A stretch of DNA of 64,000 nt from Mobula hypostoma (Eukaryota): NCBI RefSeq assembly GCF_963921235.1, contig NC_086097.1, positions 78,680,001 through 78,744,000 of the forward strand, given 5' to 3'. A program made the translations under genes and the position numbers. The notes beneath the pieces were generated by a model, which was not told the origin of the DNA, did no database searches, and saw only the letters and a list, made by a program, of their open reading frames with translations. Of this stretch, positions 13,341 to 59,858 are shown one piece after another (the first letter of the stretch is position 1; the number at the start of each line of letters is the position of its first letter).

Positions 13341-15688
13341 TTAGAGGAAGTTAGAGAAGTCGATGTTTATGCCATCAGGTTGGAGGCTACCCAGAAGAAA
13401 TATAAGGTGTTGTTCCTCCAACCTGAGTGTGGCTTCATCTTTACAGTAGAGGAGGCCGTGGATAGACATGTCAGAATGGGAATGGGATGTGGAATTAAAA
13501 TGTGTGGCCACTGGGAGATCCTGCTTTCTCTGGCGGACAGAGCGTAGATGTTCAGCAAAGCGGTCTCCCAGTCTGCGTCGGGTCTCGCCAATATATAAAA
13601 GGCCACATCGGGAGCACCGGACGCAGTATATCACCCCAGTCGACTCACAGGTGAAGTGTTGCCTCACCTGGAAGGACTGTTTGGGGCCCTGAATGGTGGT
13701 AAGGGAGGAAGTGTAAGGGCATGTGTAGCACTTGTTCCGCTTACACGGATAAGTGCCAGGAGGGAGATCAGTGGGGAGGGATGGGGGGGACGAATGGACA
13801 AGGGAGTTGCGTAGGGAGCAATCCCTGCGGAATGCAGAGAGAGGGGGGGAGGGAAAGATGTGCTTAGCGGTGGGATCCCATTGGAGGTGGCGGAAGTTAC
13901 GGAGAATAATATGTTGGACCCGGAGGCTGGTGGGGTGGTAGGTGAGGACCAGGGGAACCCTATTCCTAGTGGGGTGGCGGGAGGATGGAGTGAGAGCAGA
14001 TGTACGTGAAATGGGGGAGATGCGTTTAAGAGCAGAGTTGATAGTGGAGGAAGGGAAGCCCCTTTCTTTAAAAAAGGAAGACATCTCCCTCGTCCTAGAA
14101 TGAAAAGCGTCATCCTGAGAGCAGATGCGGCGGAGACGGAGGAATTGCGAGAAGGGGATGGCGTTTTTGCAAGAGACAGGGTGAGAAGAGGAATAGTCCA
14201 GATAGCTGTGAGAGTCAGTAGGCTTATAGTAGACATCAGTGGATAAGCTGTCTCCAGAGACAGAGACAGAAAGATCTAGAAAGGGGAGGGAGGTGTCGGA
14301 AATGGACCAGGTAAACTTGAGGGCAGGGTGAAAGTTGGAGGCAAAGTTAATACAGTCAGCGAGTTCTGCATGCGTGCAGGAAGCAGCGCCAATGCAGTCG
14401 TCGATGTAGCGAAGGAAAAGTGGGGGACAGATACCAGAATAGGTACGGAACATAGATTGTTCCACAAACCCAACAAAAAGGCAGGCATAGCTAGGACCCA
14501 TACGGGTGCCCATAGCTACACCTTTAGTTTGGAGGAAGTGGGAGGAGCCAAAGGAGAAATTATTAAGAGTAAGGACTAATTCCGCTAGACGGAGCAGAGT
14601 GGTGGTAGAGGGGAACTGATTAGGTCTGGAATCCAAAAAGAAGCGTAGAGCTTTGAGACCTTCCTGATGGGGGATGGAAGTATATAAGGACTGGACATCC
14701 ATGGTGAAAAAATAAAGCGGTGGGGGCCAGGGAACTTAAAATCATCGAAAAGTTTAAGAGCGTGAGAAGTGTCACGAACATAGGTCGGAAGGGATTGAAC
14801 AAGGGGTGATAAAACCGTGTCGAGGTATGCAGAAACGAGTTCGGTGGGGCAGGAGCAAGCTGAGACAATAGGTCGGCCAGGACAGGCAGGTTTGTGGATC
14901 TTGGGTAGGAGGTAGAAACGGGAAGTGCGGGGTGTGGGAACTATAAGGTTGGTAGCAGTGGATGGGAGATTCCCAGAGCGGATAGAGTCGGTAATGGTGT
15001 GGGAGACAATGGCCTGGTGCACCTTAGAGGGGTCACGATCGAGGGGTAAATAAGAGGAGGTATCCGCGAGTTGTCGCTGTGCCTCGGCAAGGTAGAGGTC
15101 AGTACGCCAGACTACAACAGCAGCCCCCTTATCGGCGGGTTTAATAATAATGTTAGGATTAGTGCGGAGGGAGTGGAGAGCAGAGCGTTCCGAAGGAGTG
15201 AGGTTGGAATGGGGACAAGGTGCGGTGAAGTCGAGACGGTTGATGTCCCGTCGGCAGTTGGCAATAAAGAGATCCAGAGCAGGCAGAAGACCAGAGCGGG
15301 GTGTCCATGAAGAAGAGGAGGGTTGAAGATGGGAGAAGGGGTCATCGGTGGGGGTGGAAGAGTCCTTGCCGAAGAAGTAGGCTCGGAGACGGAGACGGCG
15401 GAAGAAAAGTTCCGCATCATGGCGAACACGGAACTCGCTGAGGTGTGGGCGAAGGGGGACAAACGTGAGGCCCTTACTGAGAACAGAGCGTTCTGCCTCC
15501 GACAGTTGAAGGTCGGAGGGGATGGTAAAGACCCGGCACGGATGAGAGCTGGGATCAGAGCGGGGAGGGGGGAGGCTGGGGGTGTCAATGGAGAGGGGAG
15601 GGTTGGGGTGACAGGAAGATGGAGCCTCTGAGGGCCCAGGAGCTGACGGTGGGATCTGAGGGAGTCGGGAGTCACAACAGCAGCACAT
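13341..15688 (-). pseudogene. Penelope reverse transcriptase + GIY-YIG endonuclease (frameshifted near 14707-14712)
   Basis: KPADKG, YLLPKIHK, PGRPIVS, MDVQSLYTSI, GVAMGTRMGPSYA, LRYIDD, YYKPTDS, CKRNKCYTC, VIYCVRC..LYIGET. Confidence 0.93.
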
Positions 15689-16309
15689 AAAGACCCGGCC
15701 TGGAGTTCAAGGCTGGAATCTTGAGAGCTGGGATCAGAGGGGGGAGGGGGGAGGCTGGGGGTGTCAGTGGAGAGAGGAGGGTTGGGGTGAGAGGAAGATG
15801 GAGCCTCTGAGGGCCCAGGAGTTGACGGTGGGATCTGAGGAAGACGGGGCTGCGGAGTGGTGGTGGGTGAAGGGGAGACGGGAGTCACAACAGCAGCACA
15901 TAAAGACCCGGCCTGGAGTTCAAGGCTGGAGTTGCAGTTGGTGGTTGCGCAATCGCTGTGAAGGTGTCCATGGTCGTTGCTGGAGTCCGGGTTTTGAGTA
16001 TGCCCTGAGGTGTTGGAGCCGGCGAGATCAATGGCAGAGGCAATCTGAAGTTCATGCCTGCTAGCGTCGGGGCCGGCAGGCTCTGGAGTCCGTAGATGTA
16101 GGATCTTGCGATCTTTGCCTAACATGACAAAGTCAAAAAAACGGCGATCGCGGAGGATGAAATAACGGGTAGGACCATTACAGACGGCGAAGAAAGTGTC
16201 CCGAAGGTGTGGAAGGGTCTGGGATAGGGACACCAAGTACTTCCATTCTGTTCAATTTTACATACTTATTAAAGAGAGGAGTTTGGAGTTCCATTCTGGC
16301 CTCATCTAA

Positions 16310-18470: not shown

Positions 18471-19596
18471 CTAAGAATCCACTTTGGGAAAAATGCTGAT
18501 TTTATTGTTCCTGCTAATCTTCCGCTCTGCTTTGAACTTTGGTTGCTTGTCAGCTGTCTGAATCAGTTCCTCTGGTGTGTTACCCAAGGGGGGCAAGAGC
18601 CTTTTCTTGCTGTTTCGTGTCTCGGAGAGCCACTGTGGAGGAAGTTCGAATGGGCCAAAGCCAAACTGCATTTCATACTTGTCGGAGACTGCATCTGAAT
18701 CTGGAGGTGCTGCTGTTGCTCCTGGCACTGCACCCGGATCATTGTTAACGTGTGGAGTAACTTTGGTCTCTAAAGACTGCTCCACCTCCAAACTAGCAGT
18801 AGGTATTTCTTTCTGCCGGCATTCACTAGATGCCAGCGACTTAATCTCATTTACGTCCTCCTCCTCCTCATCCGAAGGTTTGAAGATCTGCTGCTGTCCA
18901 ATATGGAACATCTCAAGCAATTGACTGCCTGACCGAACCCCAGGCTCAAGTGTGGCATCGCTGAGGGCACCAGAGTTTATGATGTTCCGTCTACTGTACC
19001 TGCGATGGAGCTGAATCATGGTCCCCACTAAGCACTTCCGGACAGACTTATTGACAGTCAGGAAGAGTAATGGGTTAGTGAGCAGAGAAACTTTGGGCAA
19101 CCAGATGGCTGTCAGCATCAAAAAGACAGAAATATCGGTGATATTAAAAATGATTCGATAAATCACAAAGACCACATAAGGAACACTGCAAACAATAAAT
19201 ACCAGCACCATAGAGAGCAGCATAGCATGTAGTTCAGCCTCCCGCTGGGAAACATACGGGATTGAAATTATGTTCTGTGGAGTTCGTAATGCAGCAATAA
19301 TTACTTTCTTCTTCTGGCTGGCACTGAGAGCTCTGCGAATCAGAATCATCACCAAGAACACCATGGCTATTGGCAGTATCACGGTGGTGACATGATATAC
19401 AATTACATAAGTCAGGTGTCCAAAAGAATGGTTCCATGAGCTGCTGCATGTAGACATGGCATAGATATCTGAAACACTAGTCACCGCGAAAACTGGAGCA
19501 CTGGCTAATACTGCATGAATCCAGATGTAGATCACCAAGTCCCTGGACTTTGTATCAGAGATCTTCCTCTCTAAAGGATATAAGACAGAGTAGTAC
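18471..19596 (-). CDS. GPR176: GPR176 terminal coding exon (ICL2 to TM7 and long C-tail)
   Basis: Acceptor ttttttaattacAG|G TAC TAC completes the DRYYSVLYPLERKISD motif with the upstream exon. Contains SQKKKVIIAALRTPQ, QREAELHA, NPLLFLTVNKSVRKC, FGFGPFELPPQWL and ends IFPKVDS-stop. Confidence 0.97.
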
Positions 19597-20529
19597 CTGT
19601 AATTAAAAAAAAGTGTGAATGCACAAGTCACCCTTGCTCACTCTCTCTACATTTAGAACATTACAGCACAGTACAGGCCATTCAGGCTACAAATTTAGTG
19701 GCATAAAATTCTTCCCAGATGCTTTCTTGATTATTTCGTGCTCATGAAATTTACTTTTATTAACTTTTCCTTATCCTAATTTTCTGCAGCATTGTTTACT
19801 AATCCTGAGCTTTGTCCTAATTATTCTACAGAACTTTCATTACTTCCTCCCAGCTAGGTCTCTGAACTCATTTGCCTTGTGCTACTTGTTACTGTGACCT
19901 CTAAAATATTTTATTCTTATTCTGTGACTTGCGTGTCAACAAACCCACCAAACTAGATTCATCAGATCTGTTCTTTCAACATAACACACCATCTGGCAGT
20001 GATAATTTCTTTCTGTTCTTATTTCTAATCAAATTGGTTCCCTTCATTAAAAATAATACCAAACACAAATCCCTTTTGAAAATAAATCATTCAACTTGGT
20101 CTTTGGAAGTTTATCTTGAAATTCACTGAATTATTTATTTTGTGACATAAAGTAGGATTAACATTAAGCTATTTACCCTCTCAGGTATATCCAGGGGTTC
20201 CCAATCTTTTTTATGACATGGACCAATACTATTAAGCAAAGGGTCCACACTGGGAGCTGCTGCTTTAATGAAATCTTAATTCCACCCAAACAAATATCAT
20301 TCTTTACAGTTCTAAAATGCCATGAGCCTTATAACCTCATAAAATCTTAATATAAATTGTCATCTTGATATCCCTCAAAAGTTTCATTTTGTATTCCCTT
20401 TTTTCATGTTTTACTACTCTTTTGTTTCTTTTGCTAGTGTTGCATCTTTCCTAGTTAGCTGTACTTCCATAATTAATTGAATGCCAAACCCTTCGCTTTA
20501 GTGTTAATTCTCTAACAACGATGGCTGTC

Positions 20530-29369: not shown

Positions 29370-32300
29370 CAATGTCAGTGGTTCTGAATTATGTACATTT
29401 CTCCCAATTCCATCACCTAGCACGGGTCCCCACCGCCCCCAGAATTCACTATAACAGGCATTGTGAGACTGTCTGGCGCTCGGACAAGCTACCCGGTTTG
29501 GTTCTTGTGTTCCATGGGTGGAGGAACAGCAGGTGCTTATGGCTCATCCAAAGGTCCGTTGACATTATGTGAAACCAGGGGCATGGCAGTGGAGTACTCC
29601 AAATCTTAGAAACATAGAAACATAGAAAACCTACAGCACAATACAGGCCCTTTGGCTCACAAAGCTGTGCCAAACATATCCTTACCTTAGAACCACCTAG
29701 TCTCACCCATAGCCCTCTATTTTTCTAAGCTTCATGTATCCATCCATAAGTCTCTTAAAAGACCCTATCGTTTCTGCCTCCACTGCCACCGGCAGCCCAT
29801 TTCACGCACTCACCACTCTCTGCGTTAAAAAAAACTTACCCCTGACATCTCCTCTGTACCTGCTTCCAAGCACCTTAAAACTATGCTCTCTTGTGCTAGC
29901 CATTTCAGCCCTGGGAAAAAGCCTCTGACTACGCACAAGATCAATGCCTCTCATTACCTTGTACACCTCTATCAGGTCACCTCTCATCATCTTGGTGGGA
30001 TGATTTAAAGTGATCTATTTATATATGTTCAGGATTACCCCTCTTATCTATGATAAAAGTATTTTCTCCACATTCCAAAACATGGAACAGGCCATTGTAA
30101 GGGGGCCTAAGGGGATGTTGGTGTGCGTCATGGCAGATGAAAACAAACGAGGTGGAATGTAAGTCAACCAGAATCCCAAGAGTGCTGTCTGCCATGATGG
30201 GAGGTAAAAATAGATGAAAAGGATCTGAATTTACTGAGGATGGTGTGTTGCATGAATGAGGTCACTGGAGAAAAGTACTGGGAGATACGAAACAGCTTCC
30301 TTTTTCCGCAAGACAAGGTACAGCAGGCATCATAGAGTGGCACTTTCGGTCAATAGGTCTGGCTGGCCTAACGTGGGGCTCGATATTTTATGTGCCAAAC
30401 ATCAAAGAACAATTCTAGATTTACAACGTATGGACAATGCTTTCTTTGAAACTATGTACAACCTTCACACCTCCTGATTCACATCTACACCACAGACATC
30501 CAAATGAATTTTAATCAGTATTGCCTGGTCTGGGATTCACAGCTTTTAGGAACCCATTGTTCAGAGCTCCAGATTAAATCCACAATTCATTTTCAGCCAA
30601 AGTCAATTGCTAAATGTATGTGACCTAAACCCAAAAATTGCTCTAATAATTTGGAGCACTGTTGAGAGGCCAACTAGGTGGTCGTGGCATCAGGAAGGAA
30701 ATCCGTGGCACTCATAATGAGTGCCCGTGTACCAACTCTGCCACGGACAACTGCAGGTACTCCTTTGGAGCAGTTCTAAGCTCTAGGAGGACCCACGGGA
30801 GCCAATCATGCCAAAACTCATCGGTCAGGGAAGCCCTCAGAGCAGCCTTCAAGAAGCAGTGAAGCTGTTTGCGTAGACCATTGGACTGCAAGTGATGCAC
30901 TGTGGTGTGATGTAGCCTAATTCCAAGGTTCTGGGCCATCACAGCCCAGAGGTCTGAAATGAATTGGGGACCGCGGTCAGAAGAAATATCAGATGGGGTG
31001 CCAAACCAAGCAACCCAAGTACTGATGAATGCCTGAGCCACGACTGCAGCCATCGTCAGTGCTGGAGGGACGACCTCTAGCCACCTGGTGGTACGATCCA
31101 CCATGGTAAGAAGGTGCATGGAACTGCAGGGGAGGGGGGAAGAGGACCAACAAGGTACACATTGACAAACCATCGCGCAGGGACCTCTAACTGAACATGG
31201 TGGTTAATTTTTCTCTTTTGGCACCCCACACAAGCTGCAGTCCAATCACGCTGTGCCAAACAAGCTTTTAGTGCAACCATTTCCTGCGAGGCCTTCCAGC
31301 CTGGATGCAACAGTCCATCTGCAATTTGCGGGCATGGCGGGGTGAGGGCGACCAGTTGAGACATCACAATTGGAGACAAACCTCAGCTTCCCTGAACTTA
31401 ATATCAGCCAACTGCAGGCCTGTGACTGCTGTTTGGTAAGTCTGGACCCCTGGGTCAGTAACTTGGTCGGCTGCCATGCCAGCATAGTCAGACCCTATGT
31501 GCACAGCCTCAAAGGCTGGCCATGAGAGGCAATCATCCATGGCATTATTTTCTCCTTGACACATCGTCTATCAGTTGTGAACTTGGATATGTAGGCCAGG
31601 TGGCATTGCTGCCATGCAGACCAAGGGTCAGATGTTTTGGCCATCGCATCACCAGGAGTTTGTGATCAACTAACGCTGTGAATGGGGTTGGTAATAACAA
31701 CATGGGCAGCAACCACCATTGGATTTAGAGACCAGTATGGAGGGGTGAAGCCCAGAGCTATTCGACCAGCGTACAATGCCAAGTCTTGCCATCAAAGGGT
31801 GATGCTGGCAGCACACTCACTTGAGCACCCTTGTCACACCGGAAGTGCCACCTCAAAATGGTCTCCATAATGAACAGTAGATGACCCTGGCAGCTGTAAT
31901 CCACACTGTTCGCAGACGTCCGATGTCTCTGTGCACTGGCACTGTCAAAGCTGCAAGGCAATCAGCACTTCCAAAACGACTGTGGTAAAAACACAGGCCC
32001 GGCTTCATCTGTTTCGCAGCTGCAGCTGTACTTATGTTGGGAGCCTTGCTAACTGGGTTTATAGAGGTAAAGAAAGGAGAAGGAATGATGCATCTCTGCC
32101 CAACTAAGTGTAGACTATCAGCCATTTTAGCAAGCTTCCTATCGTCCTTCATGGGTGCATAATTGAGGGCTACGTGAACTTGATCAGGCATTTGCTGCAT
32201 TGAGAGCTCTTTGAAACCAGAACAAGGATGGTGATTTCCCAGGAGAGACAGCATGTGGTCCTTTTGCTCCAAAGGCTTACCATTGCCAAGGACAGCAACT

Positions 32301-32796
32301 GTTTGGCACGCTCAGATTCCAATAGTCCAAAAGACTGTAGAAGGTGAATTTTTAGTGATCGGTTTTTATCATGGTCAGCCAAGTGTTCAAGCAGACTCAC
32401 CACTCTCACAGCTGTGGAATTGCTGAGTGACACAACCACATAGTAGGATTTGGTGTCATTGGCAATGATTTCTCACAGAGCAAATTAGGCCTCAGCTTGT
32501 ACAAGCCAAGCAACAAAATTTCCCTCCCCAAGCTACAGAAGTTTCAAAGCAACTGGATTGACCTAGAGCATCAGGGTCACCACTGTAAGGTTTTCACAAA
32601 TAAAGTGAAGTGAGACGTTTTAAGGTTAATAAAACCTGTAGCATATTTTATTGAATTCAAAACCTGAACACAAAAGCCTGCTCAAAATCCTTACGTAATA
32701 ATGTCATCATGACAGACCAGCCTCTTAAAGTGAATCCCCAACTCAATGTCAGTGGTTGTGAATTATGTAAATTTCTCCCAATTACATTACCCTACA
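29370..32796 (-). mobile_element. Decayed Ty3/Gypsy element, CsRN1-like clade (RT deleted)
   Basis: 5' LTR 32584-32796; partial 3' LTR 29370-29420; PBS TGGTGACCCTGATG (32569-32582) resembling the tRNA-Trp complement; Gag CFYHSRFG..C..PC; protease CDKGAQVSVLP; integrase LTMVDRTTRW, ISSDRGPQF, HHTTVHHLQSNG. Confidence 0.85.
29606..29990 (-). mobile_element. Young CR1 3' end nested in the Gypsy
   Basis: RGDLIEVYKVMRGID...FFLTQRVV; octamer tail (TTTCTATG)n at 29606-29630. Confidence 0.9.
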
Positions 32797-36161: not shown

Positions 36162-36341
36162 ATTACGAATTGATAATGCTGTATTTGAGTTGGTTGTGAT
36201 TATGTTTACCATTTGTATGATTAGCTGCCATTAAAATAACCTCATATTGTTTGGTTGAATAGGTTCTTGTTCCATGATCTAAAAAATGAATACTAGTCAT
36301 TATCTTTTCATTTTGGCCAGTTGCTAACCCCTCTTGAATGT
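36162..36341 (+). repeat. Inverted duplicate, left arm (partner 51343-51518)
   Basis: By eye, the reverse complement of 51343-51518 except for two 2-bp indels. Confidence 0.92.
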
Positions 36342-40797: not shown

Positions 40798-43117
40798 GTA
40801 CCTGTCACCAGGTTTGGATAAGACCCAAGTGCGGAGTGAGAAACACTGAAGTGGATCGATAGTTCACAAAACTTTAATGCGAACAGTGTTAAAGGGAAAA
40901 TAAAACAATAAAGGCTAGGCCAAAGAGGGCCATTAACTAAAACTCTGAAACGGGAAACGAAGCCCGCATTGCAGCTGAAAAGAACATCTAAACATTAAAC
41001 AAATACCGCTAGTCTTCAGAGTCGATTTCTCAGGCAAGGCCGATGTTAGCAAAAGCAAGTCACTGCTGTGCTCTGTCCATGTCTCGACAGGCACTACGAC
41101 AACAAGTATGGAGTTCAATACTATCACGATTAAATAATTACCTGACATGTGCAAATTCACAAGCGCAATTGCCGTATTTACTGTGCTGCCGAATCCGTGA
41201 TTGTGACAGGGCCCCCCTCTCTCTGCGCAGCCCCTGAGGCGCCACAGACCTGTGTCCGCTGGAAGTCCCAGATCAGCAACTTGTCCAAAATGTCCTTTGC
41301 TGGGATCCAAACACGTTCTTCTGGGCCATACCCCTCCCAGTCCACAAGGTACTGGACATTATCACGTACCCAGCGAGATGCCAGGAGGCGGCACACGGTA
41401 TAGACAAGGGAACCATCTACCAGGGGGGGAGGAGGGGGAGGTGGGGTGACTGGGGCCAGGGGAGAGGTAGTAATGGCTTGAGCTGGTAAACATGCAATAC
41501 TGGGTGGATTTTCATTTGATGCTGGTAGATGTTATCTATAGGACACCTTGTTGACAGCCTTTTCCACTACAAACGGTCCCACATAGCGCGATGCCAATTT
41601 CTGGTTCTCGACTTTCAGGGGAAGATCCCTAGATGCCAACCAGACCGCCTCTCCTGGCTTGAATGGCCTTACCTGTTGACAAGAGTCAGTCAGCCTGTTG
41701 GGAATGCTGTTTCTGGGCACGCAGCAGAGAAGCCCTGGCTCGACTCCATGTGCGCTTGTGGTGCTGGATCATCTGTTCGGCTGCAGGAACTCCTACGTCA
41801 ATCTCCTGATCGGGGAGGAGCGGGGACTGGAATCCCTTCTGACATTCAAAGGGAGACATACCGGTGGAGGACGACTGGAGGTTATTGTGAGCGATCTCTG
41901 CCCAAACCAATTGGGAGCTCCAGAACGTGGAGTTGGAAGAAGCAAGACAGTGCAGGGTTGTATCCAACTCCTGGTTCACTCTCTCAGTCTGGCCATCAGA
42001 TTGGGAATGGAAGCCAGACGAGAGGCTGGCCGTGGCTTCTACAAGAGAGCAGAAAGCCTTCCAAAAGTGGGAGTGAACTGTGGTCCACGATCAGACACTA
42101 TGTCTTGAGGAAAACCATGGAGCCTGAACACATGTTGAACCATGAGTGTGACAGTCTCACGAGCTGATAGGAGCTTGGAGAGGGCAATGAATTGGGCAGC
42201 CTTGGAAAATAGATCCATATCGACCAAAATGGTGGTGTTTCCATTAGATGGGAGCAGACCAGTAATGAAATCTACTGAGAGGTGGGACCAGGGGCGGAGG
42301 GGCACAGGCAGTGGACATAACAGACCCGCAGGACGCTGGAGTGATGTCTTGTTCTGAGCGCAGGTGGGACAGGCAGATACAAAGTCGTGGACATCCTGGG
42401 ACATAGGCCACCAAAATTGTCTCTTTATAAACTCTTGAGTCTGTTGATTTCCTGGATGTCCAGCTAGACGGGAGGAGTGACCCCATTCCAACACTTTGGA
42501 ACGCACCACAACAGGGACAAACAGCCGATTGGGAGGTCCCCCATCCAGGCCTGGATCTGATTGTTGGGCAGCCCTCACCTCTGCCTCTATTCCCCAGTTC
42601 ACCGGAGCAGCTACACACAAGCAAGGAAGATTGGGCTCTGGATCGGCATTGTCCTCAGATCTGTCGAACTGCTGGGAGAGAGCGGTGGCCTTTGTATTCT
42701 TGCTGCCGGGACGATAAGTGAGGACGAAATTGAACCATGTGAAGAAGAGAGCCCACCGGGCTTGACGAGAGTTGAGTCTCTTAGCATCCTGAATATAGGA
42801 GACGTTCTTGCAATCTGTCCAGACCAAGAATGAATGCTTTGCCCCCTCCAGCCAGAGTGGCCATTCCTCCAGGGCCTCCTTGACAGCCAGAAGCTCCCGG
42901 TTCCCAACGTCGTAATTCCTCTCAGCTGGAGTCAAGCAATAGGAAAGAAAGGCACAAGGATGCAGCCGGCTATCCGCAGACGAGCACTGAGAGAGGACTG
43001 CTCCAATGCCCACTTTGGATGCATCCACCTCGACAATGAATGACTGAGATGTGTCTGGGTGTTGCAACAGCGGGGCAGTGGTGAAACATTGCTTTAGCTG
43101 TGAAAATCCTTTGTCGG

Positions 43118-43242
43118 CATAGTCATAGTCATAGTCATACTTTATCGATCCTGGGGGAAATTGGTTTTCGTTACAGTTGCACCATAAATAATTAAGTAGT
43201 AATAAAACCATAAATAATTAAATAGTAATATGTAAATTATGC
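43118..43242 (-). mobile_element. Short LINE 3' tail copy with (ACTATG)n
   Basis: Nearly identical to 44728-44856; directly abuts the Gypsy RT/RNase H coding sequence. Confidence 0.9.
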
Positions 43243-44727
43243 ATTGGACTGCTGCTGCTAAGTTAACAAATTTCACGACACATGCCAGTGATGATAAACT
43301 TGATTCTGGTTCTGACTCGGATTCGGATTTGTGGGCACAGCTCGACACATCTTGGATATCGGCCTTCCTTCCATGACGTCTGTCTACCCTTCTCACTTCC
43401 TTGATAAAATAGTCAATATAATTCAAGATCTCAGTTCCCTGGACATTCTCTTTTCTCCCCCATCCAACTGGGCAGAAGATACAAAAGACTGAAGCACATA
43501 TCACCAGCCTGAGGACAGCTTCTATTCCACTGTCATAAAACTATTGAACACCCCACTAGTACGATAAGAATGGACTCTTTACTTGCAATAAATAAATGAT
43601 CCATACAGTCCCAGGTCTCTTCTTCATATTTTCCCCCTGGCTCTGCAACTTATTATCTCTTGCATGCTCATCAATTCCCATGTGCTCTTTACCTACATTA
43701 AGTAGTCCATTACCAGCATGTCTTTGGAATGTGCACAGAAACCTTAGTAGTCACAGGAGAATTTCATATTCCGCACAGATAGTACTTGAGGTCAGATTTG
43801 AATCCAGACCTGAAGATGTAGGTTTGCAGCACTGATTGCTCTGCCATCAAGAAATATTCTTTGATTTTTTTAATCAATTGGTGCTGTTTTCCAATTGTAA
43901 TTGTTCCCTTTAGACTGATACATTTTTCAGCAATATCTAATTCCATTTTGAAAATTAATGGAAAATCTAATTCAGCCGTGTTTCTGGGTCATGCATTTTA
44001 GGTCATAGTAACTCTGCTCTGATTCTTCAGAAAGCTACCTTAAATCTGCATCTACTAATCTACTCACCTGCGGAAAATGCCTCAAGGTAATCCTTTGAAG
44101 CCATAACTCACAGTCAGTGGCAGCACCAGATATTTTTTCTTGCTGGTGCTACAGTGGGGCTGAATTATTCAGTGATGGTGCTGAGAGATGTACCCTATGG
44201 TAATATGTATTCGCAAGGCCAGACGCGTGACGTTCAAAAGTCCGTTTCAAGCATTATGTGCCTACTATAAATGCCTCTGTTGATTCACAAGCAACAGCAA
44301 TTGATAAATATAATATAGAAGTAAACTGTGACAGTGTCAACAGCTTCAGAGACAATCTGGGCTACACAGAGCACAAACAAACCAACAGAGCGTCCGACCC
44401 ACAGCGCACAACGTGAATCACGCACCAATCCCACAATCAGCATCAAATGCATGCTTTTCAACTGAAAAGCACAACACTAACCCACAATGTCCACTGCTAT
44501 TCGCATTACATAGACAGACAATGCCAAAAGATACACTGTTATTAAAGTCAAATAAGGCAAACAACAGATGCAAGGCTCTACCAGGAGTTGGACAAATCGT
44601 ACTCTGACCATGCAATACCTCAATGAATTCAGCTATTGAATTTAAAACGAAAATCAACAGAATCACCGCTTGGAAGTCCAAGCAAAACCAGTAGGCTTAA
44701 TAGCAGTAAATGTAATAGTTTAGGATT

Positions 44728-46143
44728 TAGTCATAGTCATTGTCATAGTCATACTTTATTGATCACAGGGGAAATTGGTTTTCGTTACAGTTGCACCATA
44801 AATAATTAAGTAGTAATAAAGCCATAAATAATTAAATAGTAATATGTAAATTATGCCAGGAAATAAGTCCAGGACCAGCCTATTGGCTCAGGGTGTCTGA
44901 CCCTCCAAGGGAGGAGTTGTAAAGTTTGATGGCCACAGGCAGGAATGACTTCCTATGACGCTCTGTGTTATATCTCGGTGCAATGAGTCTCCAGCTGAAT
45001 GTACTCCTGTGCCCAACCAGTCCATTATGTAGTGGATGGGAGACATTGTCCGAGATGGCATGTAACTTGGACAGCATCCTCTTTTCAGACACCACCGTCA
45101 GAGAGTCCAGTTCCATCCCCACAACATCACTGACCTTACGAATGAGTTTGTTGATTCTGTTGGTGTCTGCTACCCTCAGCCTGCTGCCCCAGCACACAAC
45201 AGCAAACATGATTGCACGGGCCACCACAGACTCATAGAACATCCTCAGCATCGTCCGGCAGATGTTAAAGGACCTCAGTCTCCTCGGGAAATAGAGACGG
45301 CTCTGATCCTTCTTGTAGACAGCCTCAGTGTTCTTTGACCAGTCCAGTTTATTGTCAATTCATATCCCCAGGTATTTGTAATCCTCCACCATGTCCACAC
45401 TGACCCCCTGGATGGAAACAGGGGTCACCGGTACCTTAGATCTCCTCAGGTCTACCACCAGCTCCTTAGTCTTTTTCACATTAAGCTGCAGATAATTCTG
45501 CTCACACCAAGTGACAAAGTTTCCTACCGTAGCTCTGTACTCAGCCTCATCTCCCCTGCTGATGCATCCAACTATGGCAGAGTCATCAGAAAACTTCTGA
45601 AGATGACAAGACTCTGTGCAGTAGTTGAAGTCCGAGGTGTAAATGGTGAAGAGAAAGGGAGACAAGACAGTCCCCTGTGGAGCCCCAGTGCTGCTGATCA
45701 CTCTGTCAGACACACAGTGTTGCAAGCACACGTACTGTGGTCTGCCAGTCAGGTAATCAAGAATCCATGATACCAGGGAAGCATCCACCTGCATCGCTGT
45801 CAGCTTCTCCCCCAGCAGTGCAGGGCGGATGGTGTTGAACGCACTGGGAAGTCAAAAAACATGACCCTCACAGTGCTCGCTGGCTTGTCCAGGTGGGCGT
45901 AGACACGGATCAGCAGGTAGGCGATGGCATCCTCAACTCCTAGTCGGGGCTGGTAGGTGATCTTGAGGGGATCTAAGTGTGGCCTGACCATAGGCCGGAG
46001 CAGCTCCAGAACAAGTCTCTCCAGGGTCTTCATGATGTGGGAGATCAATGCCACCGGTCTGTAGTCATTGAGGCCGCTGGGGCACGGCATCTTCGGCACA
46101 GGGACGAGGCAGGATGTCTTCCATAGCACAGGAACCCTCCGGG
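44728..46143 (-). mobile_element. Young Rex1/Babar-type LINE, 5'-truncated
   Basis: NDYRPVALISHIMKTLERLVL, GAPQGTVLSPFLFTIYTSD, QKFSDDS, LNVKKTKELVVD, SFLPVAIKLYN; (ACTATG)n tail. Confidence 0.93.
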
Positions 46144-46337
46144 TTCGTCTGTCCAATGGAATCCTGCCGATGTCTTCTTGGTGAGTGCATTAATAGGAAC
46201 CACGATAGAGCCGAAATGGCAATAAAAGTTTGCAAGCCCCATGAAGCGCCGTACCTGTTTGACTGCAGACAGTTTGGGCCACTCTGCAACTGCCTGACCT
46301 TTACTGCGGTCCATTTGAACACTGGATGAGGTACGTA

Positions 46338-46780
46338 CAGTTGAAATCAGAAGTTTACATACACCTGAGCCAAATACATTTAAACTCAGTTTTTCACAAT
46401 TCCTGACATTTAATCTTAGAAAACATTCCCTGTCTTAGGTCAGTTAGGATCACTACTTTATTTTAAGAATGTGAAATGTCAGAATAATAGTAGAGAGAAT
46501 GATTTATTTCAGCTTTTATTTCTTTCATCACTTTCCCAGTGGGTCAGAAGTTTACATACACTTTGTTAGTATTTGGTAGCATTGCCTTTAAATTTTAACT
46601 TGTGTCAAACGTTTTGGATAGCCTTCAAAAAGCTTCTCACAGTAAGTTGCTGGAATTTTGTTCCATTCCTCCAGACAGAACTGGTGTAACTGAGTCAGAT
46701 CTGTAGGCCTCCTTCCTTGCACACGCTTTTTCAGTTCTATCCACAAAACAAAGGTGTATGTAAACTTCTGATTTCAACTG
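46338..46780 (-). mobile_element. Internally deleted Tc1/mariner IR-DR transposon, Sleeping Beauty-like
   Basis: TA TSDs (46336-7, 46781-2); 29-bp perfect terminal inverted repeat CAGTTGAAATCAGAAGTTTACATACACCT; inner DR CCCAGTGGGTCAGAAGTTTACATACACT near 46535; transposase C-terminus [32 protein letters not shown]...FKGNATKY* (46566-46746). Confidence 0.95.
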
Positions 46781-49572
46781 TAATAAACCCAAAAATGACA
46801 CCTGGTCTTTATGGAATTCACATTTTTCAGGCTTGGCGTACAGGTTGTTTTCAAGAAGGAGTCTGAGTACTCTCCGGACATGCTGGACGTGCTCCTGATG
46901 AAACCGGGAATAGATGGGGATGTCATCTGAATACACAAACTGGTTCAACATGTCCCTGAGCACATCGTTAACCAAAGCCTGGAATACAGCGAGGGCATTG
47001 GCCAGACCAAAAGGCATCACCAGGTATTCATTAGATGTGTTGAAAGCCTTTTTCCACTTATCCCCTTCTCTTATGAGAATCAGATTGTAAACATTGCGCA
47101 GATCAATTTTGGAAAATATGGTTGCTCCCTGGAGATGTTCAAACGCAGACGCCAGCAAGGGAAGAGGGTAGTGGTTCTTCACAGTGATGTTGTCTAGGGG
47201 CCGATAATCGATGCAGGGATGGAGCTTGCCATCTTTCTTGTTCACAAAAAAAGAAGCCCACTCTTGCCGGTGAGGTTGACGGAGGGATAATCCCCATGCT
47301 CAATGCCTCCTTAATGTATTCCACCATGGCCACCGTTTCAGGACAAGAGAGGGAAAAGAGCCGGCCCCAGGGAGGACTATGACACAGTCGTACGGCTGGT
47401 ATGGGGGCACGGTGGTGGCCTTTCTTTTATTGAAAACCTCAATGAGATCTGAATATTCACTGGAACCCAGACTGGTCCACATCCCTTAGCTGGCACAGGA
47501 GAGGATTCATGGAACGGAGCTTGAGCTGGACCCAGACAGGTAGACAGGCATGCCAGTCCCCACTCTTGGAGTACCTTCAGAGACCAATCAATCCATGGGT
47601 TATGTCGGGATAACCAGGGGAGACCAAGTACCAGTGGCAGTTCAGGTGAATTAACCAGATAGAAAGACATTTCTTTATGATGGTTGCCTTCGAGCACCAG
47701 TTGGAGAGTTTGGGTGGAAAGGTGGATCTGGCCAGTTCCCAGAGGTTGACTGTCCAGTGCCTTGATGTTGATCTTTTCTCTTAATTCCTGAGTTGGAACT
47801 CCCATCTTTGAGCGAGAGAGATGTCCATGAGATTCCTGGCTGCACCAGAGTCGATAAGCGCCTTAAGTTCATGGGTCTGAGACCTCCACGACAAGGAACT
47901 GCAAGCATTACAGAATTAGGGAAAGCTGACTGAAGAGAGAACCGACCCTTCAGGATTACCCTCCTTGCTGACAGGCATTCTTTTTCACCGAACACTTGGA
48001 ACATGCCGCTCAGAAGTGTCCTGGATCACCACAATAGAGACAGGAACCTGTTCTCCGGCGCCGCTCTCGTTCCTCCTGAGACAGGTGCATGCACCCCACT
48101 TGCACAGGCTCCTCAGTGTCCGTGGGCTGGGTGGTGAGGGAGGGGAAGAGGGGAGGAAAGACGATAATCAGGTGGGGTGTAGGAAGTTTGAAACATTCTT
48201 TCCCTGTGCCACTCAGTCACCCGGTCGTCAGCTCAAATAGCAAGATTAATCAGGTCATCCAGACTATTCTGCTCATCCCAGATGGCGATCTCATGCTGGA
48301 CCCCTGCCTTCAGTCCAACCCATCTCCACTGCAAGGGTACGGAATTTAACTGCATAGGCTCTCACCGTTCCTCTGCCTTGGTGCAGGTCCAAGAGTCGGT
48401 GGGCAACCTCCTGACCCCATACTGGAAGATCTAAAACCCTCCCTTAACTCCACCACGAAATATCGAAACGACTGGGCTGCGGGGTATCCTTGCTCCCATA
48501 AAGCGTTGAACAGGCTGAGTGGAGGTCCATCAAGAAAATTGACCATGTACACCAGTTTTATAATCCACATCAAAATAACCAGGCTGGGCTTGGAATGTCA
48601 GCTCGCATTGGATAATAAAATTCTTGCAGCCATCAGGATCACCAGAATATCTGCCTGGTGGTGGAATACTCAGTTCTTGTATGGACACGGGTGTCTGTGG
48701 GGGTCCAAATGTGGGAGTCAGCTCTGGTCCAGGCGCGAGAGCCAGTTTTGATCCAGGAGTGGGAGCATTAGTAGCAGAGATTGTAGGGCAGCAGAAAAGG
48801 AGGACCTGCGAGATGCTGGGAGTGGGACTGAGGCGGCCTGAGTCTGCTGAATTGTGTTGGTGAGAACGTTAATGGCTGTTAACTGATGCTGGCTGTTCAC
48901 AGTAAGTTCGTGGACGGCAGCCGTGAGTGCAGAAATTGCAGACACCTGAGTCTGGTTGTCTGCTGTGAGCTGTTGAACAGTTGCAGCTAGGGACGACACC
49001 TGTTCCTCCAAGTGAGACTGGGCTTTTTGGCACGAGATTATCTACCTCATTACCTCCATAACATCACTGAGAATAGATTCCATTGCCTGTAGCCTGTACC
49101 CTACCTGACCAATGAGTCTCACAGCCAAGGTCAGCTGCTCTTGCTCTGCTGGGTTCATCTTTGTGCGTTTGAGACTTGCTGCCACAAGGTTTGGACATGG
49201 CCCAAGTGCGGAGTGACAGACACTGAAGCAAGTCGATAGTTCACAAAGCTTTAATGCGAACAGTGTTAAAGGGAAAATAAAACAACAAATGCTAGGCCGA
49301 ACAGGGCCATTAACTAAAACCCTCAGACAGGAAATGAAGCCTACACTGTGGCTGATATGAACATCTAATTATTAAACAAATACCACTAGTCTTCAGAGTC
49401 AATACAAATAACAGCGTAGCGTTGCTGTGCTCTGTCCAAGTCTCAACAGGCACTACAATGACAAGTATGGAGTTAAATGCTATCACGATTAAATAATTAG
49501 CTGACATGTGCAAATTCACAAGCGCAATTGACGTATCTACTGTGCTGCCAGATCTGTGGTTGTGACAGTACT

Positions 49573-51342: not shown

Positions 51343-51518
51343 ACATTCAAGAGGGGTTAGCAACTGGCCAAAATGAAAAGATAATGACTAGTATTCATTT
51401 TTTAGATCATGGAACAAGAACCTATTCAACCAAACTATGATTATTTTAATGGCAGCTAATCATACAAATGGTAAACATAATCACAACCAACTCAAATACA
51501 GCATTATCAATTCGTAAT
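51343..51518 (-). repeat. Inverted duplicate, right arm (partner 36162-36341)
   Basis: Direct sequence comparison by eye. Confidence 0.92.
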
Positions 51519-52596
51519 CATTGTTGCATATTTTTAAAATATTTACATAGCTCCACTAGCAGGTACTTAATAGAGAAAAAAATCTTTCTTTTATTTTTTG
51601 GTTTAGCCTAAAATGCCTTTTTACTGCCTATCCCATATTGCTTGAGAAGGCGCTAGTGAGCCATATTCCTGAACCACTGTGGTCCTCCTGTGAAGGAATT
51701 CCCAAGGCAGTTCCAGGATTTAGACCTAGCAACAATGATGGATTGGTGATAAATTTTCAAGTCAGAATGGACTGCAAATTGGAAGGCAAAATACAAACAG
51801 CTGGCAGTGTTCTTTGTTGCTTGCAGCCTTTGTATTTTGCAGTTTAGGTATGGGTTTGGAAAGTGTTGCCAGGGCAGGAAACTGCAGCACATTTTGTAGA
51901 CAGTACACGTGTAATGAATGTAATACCACTAGTTGCTAACAAGATTCTCAGTTGGGGCTCGTTCACTTACTCCATGACTGACAAGCAAAAGTTGAGTCCG
52001 AGAGCAGAAGCAAAACTGTAAGATTGATGGGAGAAAGGGGTAAGACAAGAAGGTAAGGAATTATATTGACTCAACTTAGAACTGGGCATACTATGCTTAA
52101 TTATTCCTTGTAACTTGTTGGAAGACATCACTCAGGGGTGTGCAGGTTTTGTCATCATTATGAAACAGTAGAACACATTCTTTCACAATGTGAAGCATAT
52201 AAGGTTGAATGCAGGCTGCACTATTATCTTTGGGGGTCGAAAGTTTTCATTTATAAACTTTACTAAGTTATGGAAGTGAATTTAATTTAATTCACAATAT
52301 TGTCTTTCATTACTTACAGTGTTTTGCGGGTAATTTAGTTTTCATTCAATAAAGAACTAGTAGGGGTTTTATTTCCCAACTCTCTACACCACACTCTAGC
52401 CCAGTTGGTGGTGGTAATGCACCTGTAAGTTGGACTGCCAACCACCATTAAATCAGAAGAAAAAGAAGAGGCAACAAATAATAAACTGGGCATCATTACT
52501 CTTATCCTGTAAACGAATAAATGAAAAATCTGAAAATCCACAAACTCCTTTGCTTGAAGAATGTTTACAGCAGACCTGTAATAAGTTGTTACCTAC

Positions 52597-52849
52597 CTGT
52601 CCAATGCAATGACTGTAAAGCTGAGGACAGTGACTGAACAGAAGACTTTGTGCAGGAATTTGATGATTTTGCAGAACAGCAGGGTATAAATCCACCAGCA
52701 GCAGTATGGATTGGCACTCAGAATGATGTCGAAAGGCACACAAACAACACTTGCACAGATTCCAGCGCAGGCCAGGTTTTTGATGAAACGATTTGTGACG
52801 GACTTGAATACTGTTGTGTGGCACGTTGACCACAATACCATTAGATTTC
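52597..52849 (-). CDS. GPR176: GPR176 (orphan class A GPCR), internal coding exon (TM1 end to TM3)
   Basis: Translates (G)NLMVLWSTCHTTVFKSVTNRFIKNLACAGICASVVCVPFDII...IALDR. Acceptor ttttgatacAG at 52851-52850; donor AG|GTAGGT at 52596. The exon is 253 bp with phase 1/phase 2 ends. Confidence 0.96.
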
Positions 52850-54248
52850 CTGTATCAAAATTAAGTAGCAGAATGGTGAGAAACATTGAGGAATAAAATG
52901 CTGCAGAGACCCTACGAGGTTTTATTTAGAAATCACACTCTTTTTAACATTGTGCTTTAAGACCTGGGCATGTAAAACAAAAATGATTAATTTTACATGT
53001 TTCACAAAAATGAAAAAGAAACAATTGAATGGATGATAAACAGAAATATAATGTCTTTAAAATTCTATGTGTATCTGAAACCAATGTTCTCCTCTGCTCT
53101 CCTGAAAATACCTGCTAATCCATTTTCCACATATTCTAATATCACCCAGTGTTCTTTAAAACTCTTCCTTTGATGTCAGTGAGTTATATTGCACTACTTG
53201 ACTATGTACAGAGTTACAGTCACAATTAACCCCCGAACAGGCTGAGGGAAAATAGTCAGAAATAGCTTTTTTTTTGTACCTTCAACACCAGGTAGAGACA
53301 TAACCTGTAACAATCTTCTCTCTTACCAAGGTTTTTTAAAAAAAGTTTTGACATGAAATATTAATTCATTTGCTCTTTCCACAGATTCTGCCCTGTTGAG
53401 AGAATCCAACATTTTTTGGCTATTATATCATATTCCTGATCTAAGTAATACTTGAGTTAAGATGACTCAAGACAAAACCAGAACTTAAAGCTAAGTAACA
53501 TGATTTATATGGGGCAGTAGCACAAGAAAGGGGTATCAAATCATGAGGGAAGTTATCTGAATTCTTTTATAAGTCAAGCATTTTAATAAATCTGCTATTC
53601 CTCGGTCTTCATATTAGCTCTGACAGTGGATAAATTTTGCAAACATAGTTCCAGTCTGTCCAAAGTTTTCTTCAGCTGACTCCAATAAATAATCAAGGTT
53701 CAAGGAGAAAAGCTGTAAGATATTGGATGACCAAGCCTAAATGAATTTGAACCTTGCACCATATTATCCTTGCAGGTGCTGGTATATGATTTTGTGGAAG
53801 CAAAATTAACAAGACAAAATTAGCCAGACTCCAGACTGAGATTTTTTCTGTATTCATTTGTTGAATGTGGAAATTCTCACTTGCCCTGTTTGAGAACTGC
53901 ATTACTGAAAAAAAAATGGTTTGTGAAGGTATTCCAACTGTATTATCCAGAAGTTTAACTTAATGACAATGACCAGCTATGCATTTCCAAGTCTGAATGG
54001 CATGGGACTTCAAAGTAATCGTGCATCTGACAGTGTTTCCACGTGTTTGTTCTTCTTGTTCTGTGAGTTTGAAAGGTGGGCATGATATTGAAGAAGCCTT
54101 GAGAAGTTCCTGCTGTGTATTTTATGCCTGATATACATTTCAACCATTGTGAAGGAGGGACTGAATGCATAATGTGGTGTAACGCCTGATTACGATTCCT
54201 ACTGCTATGATGTAGGTATTTCACTTTAGTAGTTTTCTGCAAAAGCAC

Positions 54249-58619: not shown

Positions 58620-58921
58620 AACACAAAATAATCTGCAGATGCTGGGATCAAAGCAACACCCACAATATGCTGGAGGAACTCAGCAGGCCGGGCAGCACCA
58701 GTGGAAATGATGAGTCGACGCTTCGCGCCGGAACCCTTCGCCAGGATTGAAGAAAGAAGGTGGGGGAGGGTTAGAAGAAGGCTCATAGTTTCAGTTGAAT
58801 TATTGTTTTTTTTATTACTGGTTTTTCAACTGAAACTACGAGCCTTCTTCCAACACTCCCCCACCTTCTTTCTTCAGTCCTGGCGGGGGGTTCCGGCCCG
58901 AAGCGTCGACTCATCGTTTCC
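58620..58921. mobile_element. 302-bp fold-back Penelope mini-element with two inverted hammerhead-like motifs
   Basis: 12-bp TSD AATTTAATCTCT (58608-58619, 58922-58933); ~98-bp inverted arms 58702-58799 and 58825-58922. Confidence 0.9.
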
Positions 58922-59858
58922 AATTTAATCTCTGTTCAGTCTGGGAGGAGGCAAGTTGACAGCATAAGTACTAGTAACAGACAAGATGCAAGATCAGGCT
59001 CCTATCAGTCACAGCAGAAGGGAATCCATACTTCCTGAAAAAGAAAATGTCCGTATCCAGGAACATAAACCCTCATTTTGAGAGAAGATGCAGTGGAAAG
59101 GAAGAAACTGGGAGAAAGGAATGACATCCTTCCAAGAGTCAGGTCAGGAAGAGTTGTAGTCTAAATAGCTGTGGGAGTTAGTGAGTTTATAGTAAATATC
59201 AATGGATTGTTTGCCTCATGAATAAAGGGAAAGAAGTGTCAGAAATGCTCCATGTGAATTAGAGGACACGGTGGAAGTTGGTAGCACAAATGATAAAGTT
59301 GATGCATTCAGCACAGGGCCAGGGGGCAGCACCAATGCAGTCATCAATTAGACAGAGAGCATTTGAAACGGGGACTGTCCATGGAGCCAACAATAAGACA
59401 AGCACAGCCGGAGCCCATGTGGGTGCCCATGGCTACATCTTTGATTTTTAGAAAGTGACAGGAGTCAAAAGAGAAGTTGATTAAGGTAAAAACAAGTTCA
59501 GCCAGGCAGATGAGAATAGTGGTGGAGGGGAAACTGTTTGAATATTTGTTGTAGATAGAAACAAAAGGCTTTAAGACCTTCCTGATGGGGGATGGAGGTG
59601 TATAAAGAGGAGGCAGTGGGGGCGGGCAATCAAAGTTGTCCAAACGGTGAAAGGTATGTGAGGGGATCAAGCTGTAGGTAGGAAGGGACTGGACAAGGGG
59701 AGACAGGATGGATTCAAGGTATGAGGAGGGTCAATGCAGGCAGAAACACTGAGTATACCAAGACCATGCTGCTTGTGCAGCTTGGATAACAGACAGAAGT
59801 TGGGAGTGCTGAGATGAAGCACTATCAGGTTAGACGCTGTGAAGGAAAGATCTAACCT

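Follow-up and report, generated by a model that had tools for sequence, protein, structure and literature searches.

How did a 3-kb block that begins and ends in the same LINE come to lie inside the pol gene of a Gypsy retrotransposon, and where did the 1.5 kb between its two LINE parts come from? These questions were addressed in a 64-kb stretch of DNA analysed as a whole (here called the window), with the features collected in Table 1, and in contigs from four of 23 public runs: X1 and X2 (one sample, organism A), X5 (organism B) and X20 (organism G). The element that hosts the block is a full-length Gypsy of the chromodomain type; it has LTRs, a short TSD and the domain order RT-RNase H-integrase-chromodomain, and its LTR pair differs at 54 of 388 aligned bases (13.9%, LTR alignment). 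The block lies between two exons (52593-52925, 7tm_1 E 2e-12, and 18471-19637) of a minus-strand rhodopsin-family receptor gene, which we take to be GPR176.

Table 1. Coordinates of the Gypsy element and of the parts of the block within it.
Feature	Positions	Strand	Evidence and remarks
Gypsy 3' LTR (TG...CA)	40803-41208	-	Sits within an older plus-strand LINE; 5-bp TSD GTACC/GTACT
Gypsy pol downstream of the break	41181-43118	-	RNase H, integrase, chromodomain; decayed; Pfam, Ty3 match, homologue mapping
Second LINE tail	43119-43242	-	125 bp including shared base 43118; ends in TATGAC-type repeats
TGC microhomology, 3 bp	43240-43242		Shared by the tail and the 3' end of an older LINE
Low-copy foreign DNA and old repeat debris	43243-44114		Old LINE 3' end at 43243-43333; older LINE piece at 43432-43536
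Terminal piece of multi-copy repeat, cut by LINE tail	44115-44727		Depth and loose end at 44728 in X1
5'-truncated Rex1/Babar-like LINE	44728-46143	-	RT, PF09004 C-terminus, 3' UTR with AATAAA and tandem repeats; frameshifted, one stop
Gypsy gag-pol upstream of the break	46144-49179	-	RT; contains a separate Tc1-like MITE at 46338-46780
Gypsy 5' LTR	49180-49567	-	Aligned to the other LTR

Several further elements surround the block. The Tc1-like MITE within the same Gypsy pol is 443 bp long with a TA duplication and very high summed depth, and its terminal repeat is presumably like the Sleeping Beauty type; other Gypsy copies are without it (joints near 46328-46788 in the run contigs). Named best matches of the Gypsy (40803-49567) were mostly teleost proteins, with up to ~72% identity. 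Horizontal transfer of the Gypsy and of the LINE at 44728-46143 is possible, the alternative being that cartilaginous fish are under-sampled. Among viral contigs, no relatives of the Gypsy were found. An inverted pair of ~180 bp (36162-36341 and 51343-51518, 93-99% complementary, 15 kb apart) flanks the Gypsy on both sides. Farther away are an RT element with long ORFs at 13341-16251, presumably Penelope-like, pieces of a second, distinct Gypsy-like element recognised by eye at 30712-32311, and a hairpin at 58702-58922 with two 98-bp arms (92% complementary) and a 25-base spacer.

The original prediction held that one 3-kb block splits the Gypsy reading frame, and this is true. When the two pol halves were translated and mapped separately onto the best 120 of 1,371 homologues, both found a match in 114 of them and abutted with a gap of 0 in 109 (the remaining five gave -1, +1 or +3), so nothing codon-sized was lost or duplicated. 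An earlier mapping onto Ty3 RT, which placed the halves contiguous within 1 residue only on a weak match (E = 1), was superseded by the homologue mapping. The predicted start at 43118 is corrected here, the block spanning 43119-46143 (3,025 bp); base 43118 is the first base of a Gypsy Ala codon and fits the tail repeat equally. At the LINE 5' end, at most 4 bases fit either side in comparisons with L001 and L005. The only TSD candidates around the block were two of 3 bp, both at chance level, and ZfL2-2 insertions are known to end in blunt joins as well (PMC2666801). Rfam gave 0 matches over 43000-46300.

The larger LINE part had been read as a truncated Rex LINE with its tail at 46143-44728. 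A truncated LINE is indeed present, broken off within the RT, with a non-LTR RT domain (RVT_1, E 3e-13), a PF09004 match and 81-82% DNA identity to metagenome contigs L001 and L002; Rex1/Babar-like serves as a working label, the original prediction having named a Rex LINE and the comparison clusters being unnamed PF09004 proteins. As given in PMC6274825, the AP endonuclease of Rex1/Babar adjoins the RT, and Rex3 would be expected to end in a GAA-GATC tail; an identity with Rex3 was rejected, the tail here being of the TATGAC type. A terminal core of ~45 bp is common to this LINE and the distant L001, which is no more than suggestive of a stringent LINE that needs its own 3' tail. Second codon positions of the LINE have decayed at 17 of 365, a value that is an upper bound only and gives no date for the event.

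The small LINE part was claimed to be a second 125-bp copy of the same tail, and the alignment bears this out: 43118-43242 and 44732-44856 are 95.2% identical (E 1.7e-52), with 6 of 125 bases differing (95% CI 1.8-10.2%). The two tails could be two different copies, or a single tail copied twice long ago. They are the only such tails in the 64 kb, and both LINE parts are co-oriented on the minus strand, while the middle has no known sense. Folding of both tails, run without a shuffle control, yielded no shared structure worth citing. The claimed join of the second tail at TGC is also upheld, as loose ends at 43240 in all four runs show the usual sequence before the old LINE and thereby fix the microhomology at exactly 3 bp; the chance of a match of at least 3 bp at a random join is 5-8%.

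Between the two tails lie 1,485 bp that had been described as unique DNA and old debris. That description holds for 43243-44114 but fails for the ~610 bp at 44115-44727, which by depth is a young multi-copy repeat: summed depth over 44132-44679 reaches 8,000-32,000, against 4-13 for single-copy flank contigs. Depth bounds the left edge of this repeat to 44114-44127, and the edge probably falls at 44115. The repeat occurs in four of four runs, has a short hairpin near its start and is unclassified; we assume its start, CAGTGG, to be hAT-like. In X1, uninterrupted copies leave a loose end at 44728 (6 records, agreement 0.96): elsewhere the repeat goes on, and here the LINE tail cuts it.

Contigs of organism A cover 43527-44130 with 0 differences (X1 and X2) and 43289-43512 with 1 difference, so the DNA there is real and low-copy. 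Both organism-A contigs end at exactly 44130, 16 bases into the repeat, and that of organism B reaches 44155; the stop at 44130 may point to another allele or copy in the organism A sample. The organism B contig carries the low-copy part and continues 41 bases into the repeat. Organism G, ~3-4% diverged from the window, has an 890-base contig on 43301-44114 with 34 differences and 12 gaps, followed by 45 unmatched letters past 44114 (placed by minus-strand record numbering, checked on X2 record 9). Judging from this one contig, organism G would lack the multi-copy repeat at that site and have a different right-hand neighbour.

The debris at 43432-43536 has 65-68% identity to other copies within the window, compared with the LTR divergence of the Gypsy, which means that some of the debris predates the Gypsy. 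This older debris and the different neighbour in organism G indicate that the middle is foreign, and the repeat cut by the LINE tail gives it the appearance of the 3' flank of a LINE once inserted in that repeat. The claim that it did not age in place thus survives, given the age of the debris and the presence of 43301-44114 with another continuation in organism G. That the middle represents a mobile element in its own right, or aged where it stands, is hardly credible and largely refuted: ~610 of its 1,485 bp do lie in a multi-copy repeat, but its ends match in inverted orientation at 9 of 30 bases, giving no TIR, a short TSD is absent, the remainder is low-copy with 43527-44130 in one low-depth contig, and ageing in place conflicts with debris that predates the Gypsy. 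In LINE sense the 1,485 bp have no AATAAA, a weak point in favour of a read-through transcript, with about one expected by estimate.

No donor was found within the 64-kb window, where the middle matches old repeat pieces only and the continuation motif of the repeat has no match better than 3 mismatches in 15. None was seen among the contigs of the four runs, and organism A has a single version over 43527-44130 in both of its runs. Depth was tried as a measure of copy number and set aside, the middle/flank ratios being 1.6 and 1.3 (A), 2.4-2.6 (B) and 1.2-2.0 (G) while other low-depth pieces range from ~4 to 34. Extra divergence in organism B was likewise rejected as a sign of a donor: 20 of 889 bases differ against 6 of 841 in the flank (p = 0.01), but against 9 of 288 in two LTR/Gypsy pieces, which were picked as closest and may not be orthologues, p = 0.39. 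A joint at 43233-44861 in X1 reflects the usual LINE structure and was discarded as evidence, and the empty-site joint 43118-46144 was not among the 15 listed of 950 joints.

Among the contigs listed for the four runs, none bridges any of the four LINE junctions, and this, with the one version of the middle in organism A, would fit an assembly error in which LINE homology led the path into another locus and the second tail led it back. We consider such an error very improbable. The Gypsy halves abut exactly, the middle and the second tail share only 3 bp of homology at their join, the two tails are distinguishable by their 6 differences, and the window lies on a piece of more than 76 Mb, which suggests long-range assembly. 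The block is probably a real composite LINE insertion whose foreign portion measures 1.5 kb, and in general terms such insertions are known.

For its origin we tentatively favour, at a little less than an even chance, a single retrotransposition from read-through RNA, which involved a template switch unless the second tail was already present at the donor; the likelihoods that we give for mechanisms are matters of judgement, not computation. A source LINE elsewhere, inserted in the multi-copy repeat, would have been transcribed beyond its tail for 1.5 kb or more. At the Gypsy site, priming on a LINE tail (the end now at 43119-43242) would have started reverse transcription (TPRT), which would have copied 125 nt and then continued through the flank, the first tail and 1.4 kb of LINE before a blunt join to the upstream Gypsy end. 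After the 125 nt there may have been a template switch at TGC onto the read-through RNA, which taken by itself is rather unlikely; less likely again is that no switch occurred and that a short tail copy already stood at the donor, that is, tail-to-tail transduction. The order of events would be insertion of the Gypsy, the split from organism G, entry of the repeat into the donor, entry of the LINE into the repeat and, last, entry of the block into the Gypsy.

The RNA route is favoured because the junction at the start of the middle is that of a normal LINE 3' end cutting into a multi-copy repeat, because the LINE parts are co-oriented as in the template-switch chimeras described in PMC13174262 and PMC11702581, and because neither blunt joins nor microhomology at the 5' junction is unusual for a CR1-group LINE. 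In ZfL2-2, ~50% of 5' junctions have microhomology (PMC2666801), and double template switches have been described (PMC2104539). The route explains why the passenger is a flank of the same LINE family, but it requires a 3-kb cDNA, and such a cDNA would be rare given that summed family depth 1.4 kb from the 3' end is roughly 14% of that near the 3' end. Also against it, a surviving donor with a few percent divergence would normally be visible in organism A, where only one version was seen, even if contigs can merge variants; no TSD ties the block to one event; and a DNA-level rival predicts the same anatomy. The original prediction offered two RNA models, which are plausible, but it left out the DNA-level routes to this anatomy, namely homology-primed repair, gene conversion and circle integration.

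A close rival, somewhat less probable, is that DNA was captured in two steps. A truncated LINE would have inserted bluntly, and a later break near its 3' end would have invaded another copy of the family in a DDSA-like manner, with repair copying the tail and 1.5-kb flank of that copy and rejoining at TGC what was left of the resident tail, 125 bp; variants are gene conversion from a donor (tandem) that was already two-tailed, and integration of a small circle at the tail. The anatomy would be the same with a cDNA of only 1.4 kb, and DDSA mends a broken repeat by copying an ectopic site that contains the same repeat (PMC3276153). Templates are abundant (summed LINE depth >1e6, against ~10 for the flank, in X1), and the divergence of the two tails fits two separate copies. 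The intermediate allele, however, was not seen; the nascent strand would already have had 125 bp of homology for simple conversion, which would make rejoining on 3 bp a minority outcome; and no heterogeneity of decay along the LINE was detected at second codon positions (6/93, 1/94, 3/90 and 7/88), a comparison of low power.

It is improbable that nascent LINE cDNA jumped to genomic DNA, or that a 1.5-kb DNA fragment was tethered between two insertions that arose concurrently and were linked in trans. Templated insertions and captured fragments do occur at L1 junctions, and concurrent intermediates recombine (PMC11702581, bioRxiv 10.1101/2024.08.27.596794 and PMC13526784); a moved fragment would also suit the one version seen in organism A. 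The templated insertions of the tumour set are nevertheless typically shorter than 250 bp and lie no more than 15 bp from the site (bioRxiv 10.1101/2024.08.27.596794), and a random DNA template would rarely have a co-oriented tail of the same family, with only two in 64 kb. This route accounts poorly for the passenger being a same-family flank.

The block invites comparison with known systems. L1 3' transduction is defined by a poly(A) end and a TSD around the whole insert. As in such transduction, a truncated LINE is followed at a new site by what looks like its downstream flank, but the block ends in a second LINE tail instead of poly(A), has no TSD, belongs to a CR1-group LINE and comes from a source that was not found; L1 3' transduction is mentioned in PMC13526784. 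Template-switch or tripartite LINE chimeras (PMC2104539, PMC13174262 and PMC11702581) likewise fuse parts in the same orientation with microhomology at the inner join. The known ones, by the same sources, join distinct transcripts within a TSD, whereas in the block one LINE family stands first and last around a non-genic flank and no single TSD was seen around all parts.

DDSA (Fiston-Lavier 2007, as described in PMC3276153) resembles the block in having a repeat at its breakpoints, unique DNA taken from beside another copy of the repeat, and microhomology; it was described there for Drosophila segmental duplications, and here the template and the intermediate allele were not seen. That a tail lets a stringent LINE move a passenger RNA in trans is known from UnaL2 (PMC1636434), and a 3' tail could in the same way have let the passenger RNA here be copied. 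Unlike SINE-type mobilisation, however, the block is single-copy, has no promoter and gives no sign of further spread. For each candidate mechanism there are precedents elsewhere: chimeras formed by template switching, complex L1 insertions that captured genomic DNA, DDSA and mobilisation in trans through a tail are described in PMC4245944, PMC3276153, PMC13174262, PMC6274825, PMC11702581, bioRxiv 10.1101/2024.08.27.596794, PMC13526784, PMC1636434, PMC2666801 and PMC2104539. In a search of titles and abstract openings of the open-access literature, a weak screen, no tail-to-tail transduction by a CR1, L2 or Rex1 LINE was found.

The block looks like a one-off copying accident, a single case that is non-coding, intronic and dead. 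It is doubtful that tail-to-tail 3' transduction is recurrent, with transcripts that start in a source element, read through to a tail copy lying downstream and are retrotransposed whole by a stringent CR1-group LINE in tail-rich genomes. If it were, it would be a recurring and self-limiting way for LINEs that ignore poly(A) to move host DNA, and other insertions should carry the present flank or different ones between two tails. The site is a clean test case, since the Gypsy reading frame fixes both outer edges within a few bases. CR1-group LINEs dominate many fish, reptile and bird genomes. Should nested tail-flank-tail inserts recur with identifiable donors, CR1-group LINEs would gain a route to shuffle host DNA.
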